Counted from the stretch's first letter, positions 6,401 to 39,400 are shown. The stretch is 48,328 nt of DNA from Euglena gracilis (GCA_039621445.1 CP154954.1:4888950-4937277), one strand, 5' to 3'. The notes: generated from the sequence alone by a model not told the origin. Numbers and translations are program-made.

Positions 6401-9400
6401 TACCCCAAAGCCCCCTTTTTTAAGGAAAGGTTTCAATTACAAGAATGAGCCAGAACCCGTTGGACAAGAAATTCATCTTGGAATGCTTCAGGGTATCTTT
6501 GGCACAAATCAAAAAATAAATTAAAAAAACACAAATTCTGGGCTTAGAATCATATTTTTTGAACACGAGAAAAATAGAGTTGCGTCGACTGCGGGCCCCA
6601 TGGGCCACCGTGGGCGGGCGCTGCGGCCCGCCAGCACCCGGACGCCGGCCCGCAGCCCGGCCAGCACCCCGGCCCACTCCTGCTCCACGAACACGCGCGC
6701 CCGGCGCTCCTCCGTCTGCAGCCGCTCCGTCGTCACCACCACCCGCCGGTCCCGCCGGCAGAACGGCCCCAAGCGTCGGTCCAGGTCCTCGGGGGGGGGG
6801 GGGAGCGAATGGATTGCCCATATCCCCTCCTTTTGTGGCAAGTGTTGGGGATGTGGAGCCCGATGGCTGCCTGCTGGGGTGGGGCCCCTTTTCCTGGACC
6901 TCTGTGGCCGACAAGGTTTAGGGAATTTTTCTAGTTTTTATGAAACAGAGCTTAAAATAAAATAAAAGAAACAAATAATAAAAATAAATAACAAATAAAT
7001 AAACAAATAAATAAACAACTGGAATGGAAACAGAAATAAACTGAATGTATCATCCAACCGTGAACATCTGCATGGCACAAACTCTCGGCCAACCCTGACG
7101 CTTGAACAATGTCAGCTCGTGCCGCTGATGCCGCTCCGCTGCAATCAGCTGGTCGCGCGCGCTGTCCTCCATTCCAGATGAGCTCAGCACACCCATGTGA
7201 GGCGGCCAGCAACATATGAACGTGGTGTGAATGAATGAGCTTGCCAATCTGAGACCACCAAAAAAAAAAACAACGGAGACGGAGAATCACAAAAAATGCA
7301 ACTGTGGAAATTGAAGAATTAAACATCAGAAAGCAACACCAGTGCGACCATTTCAGTAGATGAAGTTTTTCTTGACGCATTGAAAAGCACACACATCCTT
7401 CCCACGCCGCTACACATGAACCTCACCCACATTCGAACTTTTCTGACAGGCAAAACGCAGCATCAGGGTCAGCACCACACGGGTCACAAGGGTGGGCCGG
7501 CCAGCACCATCTGCTCGCGGCCATAGGTTCACTAAGTGACCCCCCCCCCCGGAGGGAACTGTTTCCCGGGCCTAAAACCCACCCACCCAATTTTTTTGAA
7601 AACCCCCCGACCCCCCCCCCCATGGGGGGTCAACCACCCACCCACCCACCCACCCCAAAATCGGCCGAAAACGCTGAAAAAAAAGTTCTGGCCCGGCCTT
7701 CGGCCAAGCACAAACCTGACCCATGGCGCACCTCACCCCTCCCCCGGGAGGGGGGGGGGGGTCCCGGGGTCCCAACCCACCCACCCACCCTCGAAAACCC
7801 CCGACCCCCCCCTTGGGGCGGGGGTGACACGGGTGTTAAGTGAATCGATGCTCGCGGCCCGCCGCCCACGCCTCAACCTCCGCTTGCCGCAGGGCGACCA
7901 GGGAGGCCCGCTCCCACGCCTCCTTCTCTGCCAGCCACGCCTGCACCCGCCCGTTCTGCTGCTGCCGCACCAGGGCGCCGACAGCGTCGCCCTGCAAGCC
8001 CCAGCTGGCGGTGTAACAAAAGAACATTGATAAGATTGGGATAGGTTGCTGGTCGTCGTCGCCGTCGTCGTCGTCGTTTGCTGCTGCTGCTGCTGGTGGT
8101 GGTGATGGTGGTGGTGGTGGTGCTGCTGCTGCTGCTGCTCCTGTTGTCGTCGTCGTTGCTGCTGGTGCTGGTGCTGCTGCTGTTGTTGTATGGGTGGTGG
8201 GTGGGTGGCAGGCTTCTTTTTGAGACCCCCGGGGGGGAGGGGGGTCCCCCACCCACCCAGGGTGTCGAGGGACCCCCCTGGGGGGGGGGGACCCCCCCAA
8301 AATCGTGCCGGTTAAAGGCAATTTTCAAAAATTTTCGGCGCTTCGCACCAAAAAGGTGTACCCGGCGCCTCTGGCGCAGGACCCCCCCCCCCCGCCGGGG
8401 GGGTCCGGCCCGGACCCACCCACCCACCCCCCTTCCCCCCCCGGGGGGGGGGGGGCTGCTGACTTAAAAAATTTCCCGGTGGGTGGGTGGGTGGGTGGGT
8501 GTGATAACAACTTACAATGCAATAAGCATCGTAGAACACCTGAAAAGTGTGTCCAGGATACGTAACGAACCCATTACCACAGCCACCCTCCCTTCCGACC
8601 CCACCCACCTGCCAGCCTGCTGGGGGCTTGGACCGCCTCCTCCCGCGCCACGACCGCCCGCCCCTTGGCCTCCGCTTCGCGCACAGCCTGCCGCTCCCGC
8701 GCGTAGTGCAGGCCGACGCGGTGGCGGGGGCCCAGCGCGGCGTGGAACTCCGCCGCCACCGCCGCCAGCCGGGCGGGGGCCTCGGCCGTTTGGGCCACTG
8801 GGCTGCAGCGATGGCGTGGGGTTTCCGGCGGGCCACTACTGGGGGGGGGGGGGGCATGCAGGCTTGCATGGGAATCTCGGAGGGGGGGGGGGGACCCCTC
8901 TTCCAAAACTAGGGGAGGGGGGGTGGGGGGACCCCCCCCTCCCACCTCCAGTTTCGGTCGCCGAACTTCTCGCCGTTGAGTGCAAAATTTCGGCCGTCAT
9001 TTGGCTCAAAAAAATCAATTTTTCTGAAATTTCTCAAAAATGGTGGGGAGTCAAAGGAAGTCTGGAGACCTAAATTGAAGCCCTTGAATGCCCCATTTAA
9101 TAGTATTTGATTTCCCCGCAACTCCCCGCCAGCCTGAGTTACGGCCATTTTTCAGCCAATTTTGGCAAAATTTCACATTAATACTCAAGACGGTCTTAAA
9201 ATACACACCTGGCGCGAAGCGCCGAAATATTTTTTGCCCCCGCAGAGGAGGAGGTGGGGGTGGAGGGACCCCCCTTCCGAAACTAGGGGGGGGCCCCCCT
9301 ACCATCTACCTCATGTCTGCAGAGATTCCCATCCAACCCTGGGGGCATGGGTCCGTGCTGAAGATTCACTTGATGAACCCGGGGGGGGGGGGGGGAATCC

Positions 9401-36400: not shown

Positions 36401-39400
36401 CCAATACAGGGCCTCCGCCTCCCGCCGCAGCTTGGGGTCCGTCAGGGCCTGCACCAGTCGCCTGCAGTCCCCCTGCGTGGATCAGGGGGATTTTTAAAGA
36501 CCGGGGGTCCCCCCCACCCAGCCACCCCTGGGGAGGGCCGCCCCCTGGGGGGTCCCGGGGGACCCAACCCACTTTTTCCCAAAAAGGCCAAAAAATCGCG
36601 GAAAATGCACCTTTTCAAAAAAAATTCAGCGCCTTCGGCACCGAAAAGTGCATCCCACCCCCCTCCGGGGGGACTCCCCGAGTGGGGGGGGGGGGGCTCG
36701 GCCAAACCACCCACCCTCCCCCCTGGGTCCAAGACTTAAAAAAACCCTTAGACCGGATCCTCCCCCTGTTAAAAAAGAAAAATGCGGCACGAAGTGCATA
36801 AATTTTTCAGGCTTAAAAGAAGGCCAAAAAACGCGTTTTTCCGCACTTTATTTTTTCGGGATCTTTGGAAAGTGGAATATGAAGTTTTAATTGTGCATTC
36901 CTGAAATTCTTTAAATTTGGAGCAAAAAAAATAAGTCGGAAAATATCGTCAAAACAAGCCAACTCTGGGGGAAATTGATTTCTAGCATCATCCTTCTATC
37001 CAAAACTCGAACAAAAATATGCTTTTCGACTTTTTGATTTTCAACCTGGACGGATGTTTGTTCGATACCCAGGTGGCTCTTTGATCACCCTTAGAATATA
37101 GACGCCTTAAAAATTCTCAAAATTTTCAAAATGCCTTAACAGGCATCCTGGAACCCTGGGCAGGCATTATTTCTTTAATGGCACAAATTTTCAAGAAATT
37201 AAGGGGTTTTTAGGCGTTTTTTAAGGTTCTTTTAAGGTTTTAAGGCCTGGACACAGGGGCGTAACAACAACAACACACTGCCTTGGGTGTGCAATATTCA
37301 TACCCCCCCCAACAGAGCCCCCCAACAGAGGGAGCCGGTGAAGCCAGAAAATACAGTATCACGAAGGCAGAAACAATGGTTTTGGGGAATCAGACGGGGA
37401 CGTCCAGGGGACCATTTCCGCCCACATGTCACAACCACTCGGACTGACGGTCCAGCCAAAGGATAGTATTAGTTTTACACACCGTGGCCGACTCGGGCCA
37501 ACGGAAAATGCGGCCCACAGCTTGCAGGGAGTGGCGGCGGGCGGACTGGCCGGGCGAGGAAGGTCCGGGGGAGGGAGAGGCGCTGTACGCTGGGGGGCAC
37601 CGCCCGCACCGTCCTGCCCAGCAGACAGTCGATCACTCGCAGATGGCTGCAGCTTCGTTGGAGGACGAATGTCCTTTTGGAGGGTTGGGGCGTTCGGCAG
37701 GCTTTCTTAAGACCCCGGGGGAGAGGATCTGGCCACTCACCCCGCCCACCCAGCCAGCACGCAGGACACCCTGGGGGGGGGGGGGGCGAAAAGGGCCCAA
37801 ACCCCTTCAACACCCCCGTTGTCATTGCTTTTTCACTTGGTCTTGAAATTTACAGATTTTTCAGCCCAATATTTTTTTGGTTGGCTCAGCGTCAAACTCC
37901 CATCCCCCCTTATTTTCGGTCATTTTTTCAAGTTGTTTTGGCCCAGCCCATACCAGGGCCGCTGCACGGAGCACCCCCTCTGGGGGGGGGGGGGGGGCTG
38001 AGCCCTGGACCCCAATTCCCAGGGTCCACGTCGCCCTAAAAATAAAACTAGCCATATCGCACACCTTACCCCCAGGCAAGTTCTCTTAAGACGTTTAAAA
38101 ACCGTAAAAACTTAAAAATTCTTCCTTAAACCTTAAATTTTTTGGCCAAAATGCATTAAAAAAAAACCTTTAAAACCTTTGAAACCTTTAAAACCCATTA
38201 TAAAAAAATTTTCTCAAATTGAGCAGAAAGTAACAAAAACAAACCAACTCTGGGACAAAATGATTCCTGCCATCGCTGGAACACTGACTATCTACCGAAG
38301 TTCGGAAAAAGGGTGGCTTCGACTTTATTCGATTTTGGACACCATTCGATGCTGGGATGGCCCTTGGACCGCCCCTGCAAAATAATGCTTCAAAATTCTT
38401 AATCGCCTTGAAACCCTTGAAGAAAAAACCTCGGGGGTGGGGGTGATTGGAACCCCACCAATACTGAAGGGCTTCCCATAACTCCCTGGGGATAGGATAG
38501 CAGGTTTGGACCTGCGGTTGGAGACGGGCAGCCCTCGGGCCGTGGGGAGCAACAGCGCCGCAATGTTGTTGGCCTTGGGCTGCCCCGCCTGCAGCTGGTG
38601 CGCGGCCGTCAGCAGCACGGCGTCGTCGCTTGGCGACCCCCCCCCATGTGTGCACTGTGGCTGTTTTTTTGGTGCCTTTTATCCCTCCTTCTGGCCTGGC
38701 GCTGTTGTTCGCCTCTGGCTCATTTTGTCTGTGTATGTGGAGGTGGCCGGAGCCTGGCGGGACTTACCTTGTTTACGAAGCCGGCCACCAAGCGCCCGCC
38801 AGGCACATACTCCCCCCCCCCCCGGGGCCCCAGGGTCCAGGTGGGAGGCTGGCTGAAAATTTTGGGCTGGCTGAAAAAAAGGCTACCGACTGCCCTCCCT
38901 CCTCCCCAGGAGTCTGGCTGCTGCCGGCTTAGGCGACGCCCTGGTCAGCAGCATTGTGCAGAGGCAGCGGAACAGCCGCTCCGCGTTGATCGGCCGCCTG
39001 CGCGCCGCGGGTTGGGGGCGGGGAGGAGGGAAACCGCCCACAGTGACAGGATTGAAGTGGGTGTGGCCGGGGCAAATCCGCCAGGGCATGAAAGGTTCGG
39101 GAAAACAGGTTGCGCTACACCGGTAAAAGACCGTTTGGAACGGGCGGGTGCGATTGGTTGGATGACTCGGGGACTCGGGGAGGGTTTGAAACTGTGGCCC
39201 GCGGTTGTGTGGCGACTTCCACAGTGGCACACGCACCGCAGGCATTAAAAGGGTGATTTGCAGGTCTCAAAATTTCTGTTTTGTTGATCACATGAACACA
39301 CGTTGCGACATACATGACCATTCTCCTCCGGGTAAAATGATTAACCTCTCTTCCCATGCTGTACATATATGTATATATATATATATATGTATATATATAT

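Follow-up and report, generated by a model that had tools for sequence, protein, structure and literature searches.

The stretch of Euglena gracilis DNA considered here (CP154954.1:4888950-4937277; 48,328 bp, hereafter the window, in whose coordinates all positions are given) has a G+C content of 53%, zero N and the character of euglenid nuclear DNA. It carries exons of an expressed gene on the minus strand and twelve short elements, 159-483 bp long, whose inverted ends are flanked by an 8-bp direct repeat (Table 1). Six of these, E1-E6, had been put forward in a sequence-only reading as nonconventional introns derived from hAT-type MITEs (miniature transposable elements with inverted repeats), in which splicing would remove the element together with exactly one copy of its 8-bp target-site duplication; the other six are designated X1-X6. 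We suspect that those lying in exons are young introns of this kind, and consider below how far the transcript, sequence and literature evidence agrees with such an origin. Published work is cited from the portions of each text that were available.

Gene and transcript evidence

Transcript evidence covers 6500-23700 (17.2 kb), and E6 and X4 lie outside that stretch. It derives from two runs of assembled contigs (presumed to be RNA only from their record) and a raw RNA run, and a DNA run was aligned to the same stretch; of the 529 joints, 15 were available for analysis, as were 12 of the 440 entries for the letters between aligned pieces. A 3136-nt contig (3373 nt in the other run) defines seven exons between 6616 and 16595, and a second contig defines two more.

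The coding strand is the minus strand. The verified exons are open solely in minus-strand frames, these frames are mutually consistent, and the G+C content at third codon positions is 0.90. Their product is rich in A, R, E, V and L, with weak matches to the IQ motif, below the Pfam cut-off, in one verified exon and in the right flank of E4 (E 0.045). In a coding-score scan, 41 minus-strand segments that resemble exons and share this codon bias are spread over 241-47007, which suggests either a single very long gene or several genes in tandem, having exons of 76-190 nt and far larger introns.

Table 1. Elements, exons and introns in the window (MITE, predicted miniature inverted-repeat transposable element; element coordinates include both copies of the duplication; flanks, identity over 8 nt)
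Feature	Position	Strand	Description
E1	7514-7858	-	329-bp MITE 7522-7850, ends CAT...ATG; perfect duplication 7514-7521 / 7851-7858
E2	12277-12541		249-bp MITE, CGG...CTG; perfect duplication 12277-12284 / 12534-12541; non-coding flanks
E3	12993-13286		278-bp MITE, CAG...CTG, 12/12 inverted ends; perfect duplication 12993-13000 / 13279-13286; non-coding flanks
E4	17011-17405	-	379-bp MITE, CAG...CTG; perfect duplication 17011-17018 / 17398-17405; coding flanks
E5	22062-22491	-	414-bp MITE, CGT...ACG, E1 end family; 7/8 duplication 22062-22069 / 22484-22491
E6	38608-38951	-	328-bp MITE; perfect duplication 38608-38615 / 38944-38951; coding flanks
X1	8851-9349		483-bp MITE, CAG...CTG; perfect 8-bp duplication; non-coding flanks
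X2	15025-15336		296-bp MITE, CAG...CTG, 12/12 ends; perfect 8-bp duplication; nested in verified intron 14773-15534
X3	44733-44993		245-bp MITE, CAG...CTG; perfect 8-bp duplication; flanks borderline coding
X4	35113-35287	-	159-bp MITE, 11/12 inverted ends; perfect 8-bp duplication; strongest coding flanks of all
X5	17613-17801		173-bp MITE, CAA...TTG; perfect but low-complexity 8-bp duplication; non-coding flanks
X6	33275-33567		277-bp element 33283-33559, GG ends; perfect 8-bp duplication TTATATAA; non-coding flanks
Exon	6616-6760	-	contig
Exon	7104-7179	-	contig
Exon	7849-7987	-	contig
Exon	8633-8770	-	contig
Exon	10852-10985	-	contig
Exon	14584-14771	-	contig
Exon	16418-16595	-	contig
Exons	20419-20561 and 21097-21232	-	second contig
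Micro-exon	7503-7516	-	14 nt, predicted from contig coordinates, between the E1 intron and older intron 7180-7502
Older nonconventional intron	7180-7502	-	N3-CGG...CTG-N5, next exon base A; right end predicted; flanks 1/8
Nonconventional intron	7988-8632	-	N3-CAA...TTG-N6, directly read in transcript contigs; flanks 2/8
Nonconventional intron	14773-15534	-	transcript-verified, N3-CAG...CTG-N5 exact; flanks 3/8

Elements with inverted ends and an 8-bp duplication

In each of E1-E6 the inverted ends are abutted, without a gap, by an 8-bp direct repeat, identical at 8/8 positions in five and at 7/8 in E5, so that the architecture described in the sequence-only reading was recovered for all six. 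These elements are 249-414 bp long, and the complementarity of their ends over 12 nt is 10, 10, 12, 8, 9 and 10 (E1-E6 in order). Taking all twelve elements together, 8-12 of 12 terminal nucleotides are complementary, the interiors consist of G/C runs, tandem units and A/T runs, and the duplication is exact in 11. Where a naive comparison gives longer direct repeats (11, 9, 9, 10 and 10 nt), the 8-mer has been lengthened by matches that run by chance into the ends of the element.

The length of the duplication is sharply defined. A window-wide scan for inverted ends (at least 10/12 matching, 100-600 bp apart, tandem repeats masked) returned 4229 pairs, among which exact flanking repeats of 7, 8, 9 and 10 bp number 3, 13, 0 and 4, respectively; all four 10-bp matches are shifted registers of palindromic or tandem structures. 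The 13 matches at 8 bp compare with a mean of 0.05 and a maximum of 1 per sequence in 40 first-order Markov random sequences, an excess that bears out the earlier proposal of MITE-like insertion with an 8-bp duplication. E4, E5 and X3 lie below the scan thresholds and were detected separately. Scan matches at 30936-31203 and 33314-33528 were set aside as tandem or palindromic artefacts. A candidate at 6669-7500 with an 8-bp repeat was rejected: a verified exon contains its left arm, and its right arm is the end of an older intron.

E2, E3 and a decayed copy at about 36503-36748 form one family, with 67-74% identity and unrelated flanks, and E1 and E5 have end sequence in common. Judged by their architecture, E1-E6 are non-autonomous MITEs belonging to at least three families, with an 8-bp target-site duplication. 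Given that the same architecture occurs in non-coding DNA (E2, E3, X1, X2 and X5), the repeats come from insertion and not from splicing. Two metagenome scans gave 0 loci with further copies of the families, and there is no empty-site signature among the DNA-run joints listed. The summed depth of the DNA run is very high across the element bins, a depth to which low-complexity matches contribute. Minimum-energy RNA folds of ten elements show, in seven of them, end-to-end pairing of 6 or more of the 12 terminal bases; the ends are paired in E3, E4 and E5, the pairing of E1 is shifted by one, and E2 and E6 fold without such pairing.

Copies in non-coding DNA

The interval between the verified exon boundaries at 10985 and 14584, to which 99 transcript letters have to be assigned, contains both E2 and E3. 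An exon-like segment of ~99 nt, placed approximately near 12100-12200 by its coding score, is the only candidate for these letters, and both elements would thus be nested in a ~2.4-kb intron. Code-based chaining of introns across 10986-14583 gave 646 candidate pairs and no unique solution. From this placement and from their flanks, E2 and E3 appear to be intronic passengers rather than exon-flanked introns. X6 differs from the other elements in its GG ends; it is ~90% its own reverse complement and its inverted ends match at 20/20 positions.

Copies that interrupt coding sequence

The flanks of each element were scored with codon log-odds trained on 420 verified codons, using 15 codons per side in one frame with the element plus 8 nt removed, and compared with 20,000 random junctions. 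Coding-like flanks were found for X4 (p = 0.0001), E4 (0.0005), E5 (0.0022) and E6 (0.0034), with X3 at 0.011; the remaining values are 0.21 (X5), 0.36 (X2), 0.45 (X1), 0.60 (E2), 0.63 (E3) and 0.92 (X6). No element scores better on the plus strand, where E2 gives 0.86 and E3 0.27.

Exon-like segments lie on both sides of E4 (16913-17017 and 17390-17503). Its predicted intron, 17014-17400, has a purine as the next exon base, and the junction formed in silico is spanned by the IQ-type pattern [FILVM]Q...[RK][GA]...[RK]. In E5, the single mismatch of the duplication sits where one copy would serve as intronic spacer, and the left flank (21981-22002) is covered by contigs of two runs. The ends of E6 read CAG...GTG on the minus strand, one mismatch to the published splicing motif discussed below. 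From the coding flanks we predict that E4, E5, E6 and X4 are spliced out; exonic insertion is very probable for X4, and probable for E5 and E6.

Two of these elements have internal features of their own. A second inverted-repeat element is nested in E5 at 22146-22355 (11/12 ends starting CCAGG, with a flanking direct repeat of 10 bp), and in the interior of X4 (35151-35258) an 11-bp unit is repeated in tandem ~10 times. At 21981-22002 and 23104-23256, the contig of one run differs from the window (5/22 positions, 8 gapped letters) and that of the other run matches it, which suggests divergent alleles or paralogues of the gene among cultures.

For E1 the transcripts themselves are informative. 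The predicted intron is 7517-7853 (337 nt), and any register within an 11-nt direct repeat yields the same mRNA. In both contigs, 85 nt lie between the pieces 6616-6760 and 7849-7987, of which only 76 (7104-7179) are aligned, with 9 unaligned. Next to E1 is the older nonconventional intron 7180-7502, whose edge at 7179/7180 is read in the contigs and in 3 raw reads; its left end consists of N5 followed by CAG at 7185, and the inverted partner ends at 7499, with matches of 12/14 and 11/14. Between the two introns we predict a micro-exon of 14 nt, and 5 nt that are identical at 7512-7516 and 7849-7853 would be absorbed into the right-hand piece. Separate removal of E1 plus 8 nt and of 7180-7502 would therefore give 14-5 = 9 extra letters, with the pieces ending at 7179 and 7849, which is what the contigs show. 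The reading frame is open through the predicted E1 junction and the micro-exon. A scheme in which E1 is a mere part of a 669-nt intron at 7180-7848 (joint 7179>7849) is contradicted by the 9 unaligned contig letters. We are thus confident, short of certainty, that E1 is an intron in its own right. If the micro-exon is real, very short exons are tolerated by nonconventional splicing.

The six putative introns of the sequence-only reading consequently fall into two groups. E1, by its transcript arithmetic, and E4, E5 and E6, by their coding flanks, stand as candidates, and the idea of exonic insertions whose removal restores the frame agrees with the E1 arithmetic and with the in-frame flanks of these three and of X4; it does not extend to E2 and E3. 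The best reading of four of the six (E1, E4, E5 and E6), and also of X4, is that they are young nonconventional introns derived from transposons.

The splicing rule and older introns

The code of nonconventional introns in Euglena, 5'-N3-CDG...CH'G-N5-6 followed by a purine (R) in the exon, was defined by knock-ins (Nomura et al. 2025, PMC12501133). Changing the 3-nt spacer by one base abolished splicing, the 5-nt spacer tolerated one additional nucleotide, less well, and single changes within the critical trinucleotide abolished splicing of the tested intron. Cuts 3 nt before CDG and 5 nt after CH'G remove the element plus 8 nt, as an exonic insertion needs. Since 3 + 5 = 8 equals one copy of the duplication, the target sequence is restored exactly in any codon phase; of the two copies, the upstream one contributes its first 5 nt to the restored mRNA and the downstream one its last 3 nt. 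The intron boundaries first proposed for E1-E6 amount to N3 + element + N5 on the minus strand, which is the coding strand, and the removal of exactly 8 nt with the element agrees with this experimentally tested code. The end motif itself fits in E3 and E4 (CAG-CTG, in E4 also with the purine) and in E2 (CGG-CTG derivative).

Three older introns of the stem type have the N3/N5-6 form (Table 1), 7180-7502 with its right end as predicted. The joint of 14773-15534 (14771>15534, slidable by 1) is read in two contig runs and in 3 raw reads. Two other transcript-defined introns, 6761-7103 and 20562-21096, have neither GT/AG borders nor the published N3/N5-6 code; 6761-7103 has a 7-bp stem (AAGCGTC/GACGCTT), spacers that total 10 and a 4-nt direct repeat.

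Proposed mechanism and alternatives

In the mechanism that we favour, non-autonomous cut-and-paste transposons with ends of the form C-A/G-N...N-T/C-G would insert anywhere in the locus and duplicate 8 bp of the target. Non-coding copies (E2, E3, X1, X2 and X5) would stay inert, and exonic copies (E1 and E4, very probably X4, probably E5 and E6) would be transcribed within the minus-strand gene with its putative IQ-type motifs. The inverted ends would pair in the pre-mRNA, and the nonconventional splicing machinery would cut at two points, one 3 nt upstream of the 5' arm and the other 5 nt downstream of the 3' arm, so that the silent insertion could persist as a new nonconventional intron. Later decay of the intronic 3-nt and 5-nt spacers and of most of the inverted ends would leave the CAG/CTG stem of older introns. 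We consider this account, in which MITE insertions with 8-bp duplications are removed without a scar by nonconventional splicing when exonic, to be probable.

Several observations weigh against it. No transposase was found by a Pfam search with ten long open reading frames (ORFs) of the window, which gave nothing above the cut-off. The ends of E1 (CAT-ATG), E5 (CGT-ACG), X4 and E6 fail CDG/CH'G, the third pair being T-A or mismatched. There is no E4 or E5 splice junction among the joints listed, and E6 is beyond the stretch covered by transcripts. In one contig at E5, 326 nt are left over, and placing them would require either some of the element or divergent exons that did not align. The 9 letters at E1 come from contig coordinates, not from sequence read as such. 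The three older stem-type introns have no duplication, which leaves the end motif as their only tie to MITEs; the loss of flank identity is expected from drift of the intronic spacers, and does not tie these introns to transposons. Finally, the rule is not universal: of five introns defined by transcripts, one fits 3+6 and two, 6761-7103 and 20562-21096, misfit 3+5.

Part of this evidence would be explained if the agreement of 3 + 5 with 8 were coincidental, the enzyme alone setting the geometry through an RNase III-like 2-nt 3' overhang at the stem base. Most nonconventional introns would then be of other origin, and exonic MITEs would survive only where the numbers fit. The tolerance of the acceptor spacer for 6 nt (PMC12501133), the verified 3+6 intron and the one with spacers totalling 10, the older introns without duplication and the proposal of RNase III-type enzymes for diplonemid noncanonical introns (PMC12621601) are all consistent with this idea. 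However, at least five exonic elements in ~30 kb all have 8-bp duplications, with a length sharply at 8, and whatever the origin of the geometry, removal is scarless only with an 8-bp duplication, so that the match is functionally relevant; we hold coincidence to be distinctly unlikely. The direct repeats could also be scars of double-strand-break repair during intron gain, as suggested for an 8-nt repeat in the gapC intron of E. agilis (PMC4770533), but the same combination of inverted ends and an 8-bp repeat is seen in non-coding DNA and in copies nested within introns, and multi-copy families with unrelated flanks and a length fixed at 8 are hallmarks of staggered cuts by a transposase. We regard break repair as very improbable. 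It is unlikely that some exonic elements, E6 and E5 above all, remain unspliced in a disrupted pseudogene or a divergent gene copy. The E6 mismatch falls inside the trinucleotide in which single changes abolished splicing (PMC12501133), the contig data for E5 are ambiguous and E6 has no transcript coverage; against this, the coding signal continues on both sides in one frame, and E1, whose ends are of the non-canonical type seen also in E5, is apparently spliced.

A further alternative keeps the whole mechanism and changes only the superfamily, which would be Merlin, P-like or Mutator-like, all taken here as making 8-bp duplications, instead of hAT. The hAT end consensus is 5'-YARNG, and 8 bp is the length of hAT duplications. 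CAGGG, which fits this consensus, is found in E3, X2, X3 and the right end of E6 on the minus strand; E4 and X1 (CAGGC) and E1, E5, X4 and X5 do not fit it fully. The first base is C in 11/12 elements and the first two are CA in 9/12, whereas GG is found only in X6 and in 0/6 of E1-E6. The CAT or CGT starts of E1, E5 and X4, the GG start of X6 and the missing transposase leave room for another superfamily, as does the description in E. gracilis of two Merlin families with 8-bp duplications (PMC8101967). Merlin ends all start with GG and go with duplications of 8-9 bp (PMC8101967), though, in contrast to the predominance of C and CA here, and several elements read CAGGG; we judge another superfamily somewhat unlikely. 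The earlier hAT label therefore keeps its 8-bp duplication and CAG-like ends and lacks its transposase: duplication length and end motif make a hAT-like superfamily a candidate.

Relation to known systems

A MITE-like origin of nonconventional introns was proposed by Milanowski et al. 2014 (PMC3935182), and the strain-specific gapC intron 4 of E. agilis, with its eight-nucleotide direct repeats, was read as a product of break repair (Milanowski et al. 2016, PMC4770533). A 2024 review calls the ends terminal inverted repeats and the direct repeats 'TSD-like' (like target-site duplications), and the word hAT is absent from its available text (PMC11282704). The 2025 code paper, in the text available, leaves slidable introns out and brings up MITEs in the discussion alone (PMC12501133). 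The general idea, as the sequence-only reading had supposed, is thus in print, down to an 8-nt repeat in a new intron; the statement that N3+N5 equals one 8-bp duplication, or a hAT assignment, was not found in the full-text literature, subscription-only papers, figures and supplements being outside the search. The 3+5 arithmetic is sound, and we present it as an increment on the published hypothesis.

Euglenid nonconventional introns have non-GT/AG borders, paired ends, CAG at +4 to +6, CTG at -8 to -6 and a purine as next exon base; E3 and E4 have this end motif in full (E4 with the purine too) and E2 has its CGG-CTG derivative, but in E1, E5, X4 and E6 the third base pair is different or mismatched. 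Unlike the introns analysed in PMC12501133, the predicted introns here are recognisable multi-copy transposons with long inverted ends; in its available text that paper leaves aside 'slidable' introns that have direct repeats, and draws no link between the length of the spacers and a duplication. The gapC intron 4 of E. agilis, absent from other strains and flanked by 8-nt repeats, has the empty-site signature that the transposon model predicts, but no repeated family or non-coding copies are shown in the portion of PMC4770533 consulted, unlike the elements described here.

There is also a likeness to the introners of Micromonas and other algae, in which MITE-like exon insertions become introns and the duplication aids exact removal (PMC11282704). 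Introners, however, use the spliceosome, with GT/AG sites supplied by the element and a 3-nt duplication, whereas the rule here is measured from a stem and matched to an 8-bp duplication; 0/6 of the predicted introns start with GT or GC or end with AG on the coding strand. Like hAT MITEs, the elements are small, non-coding and present in many copies, with an 8-bp duplication and short inverted ends that begin with CAG; they differ in that several families start CAT, CGT or CAA and no autonomous partner is known here. Merlin of E. gracilis shares the 8-bp duplication and has the GG ends that occur here in X6 alone (PMC8101967).

Further features of the window

Large microsatellites are found at 5116-5722, 11124-11610, 24053-24295, 29957-30200 and 33763-34339, and include (ATAC)n with ~150 copies, (TG)n, (GTGC)n, (ACAA)n and (TGTG)n. 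They lie, like an A-rich tract of 470 bp at 26644-27117, in apparently intronic DNA. Long homopolymer runs of G and of C within MITEs (13026-13100, 13180-13255 and 22160-22200) draw hundreds of poly-G raw reads, which lead to false long-range joints in the transcript layout, such as 13092>22170. A loose-end 30-mer from that layout has 0 matches within the window. A homologous-protein search made to recover the full transcript gave no match, and an 81-amino-acid ORF from a search of protein representatives was rejected as a transcript product because it reads on into an intron and is thus genomic. A search of Rfam gave 0 matches.

Implications

The origin of euglenid nonconventional introns, and of their odd +4/-8 asymmetry, has been open since the 1990s. 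The window holds the intermediates that were missing, with the same kind of MITE in non-coding DNA, nested in introns and interrupting the codons of an expressed gene. Together with the 2025 code, they offer a simple quantitative reason why such insertions can be harmless, namely 3 + 5 = 8, and the general idea of a MITE-like origin becomes testable on the existing E. agilis intron annotation. This points to the 'slidable' introns, left aside up to now, as the young and informative ones.

From the perspective of intron evolution, we put forward tentatively, as a possibility somewhat short of an even chance, that the asymmetric 3/5 cut and the 8-bp staggered cut made by one superfamily of transposons are matched, so that exonic copies are erased from RNA without a scar. 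If true, the splicing machinery and the transposons would have co-evolved, or the machinery would perhaps be derived from the elements, and the N6 variant might serve elements with 9-bp duplications. About 70% of Euglena introns are nonconventional, most of them are 'slidable', and intron gain is ongoing. A cut and a duplication matched in this way would explain the large share of nonconventional introns, their slidability and their continuing gain.

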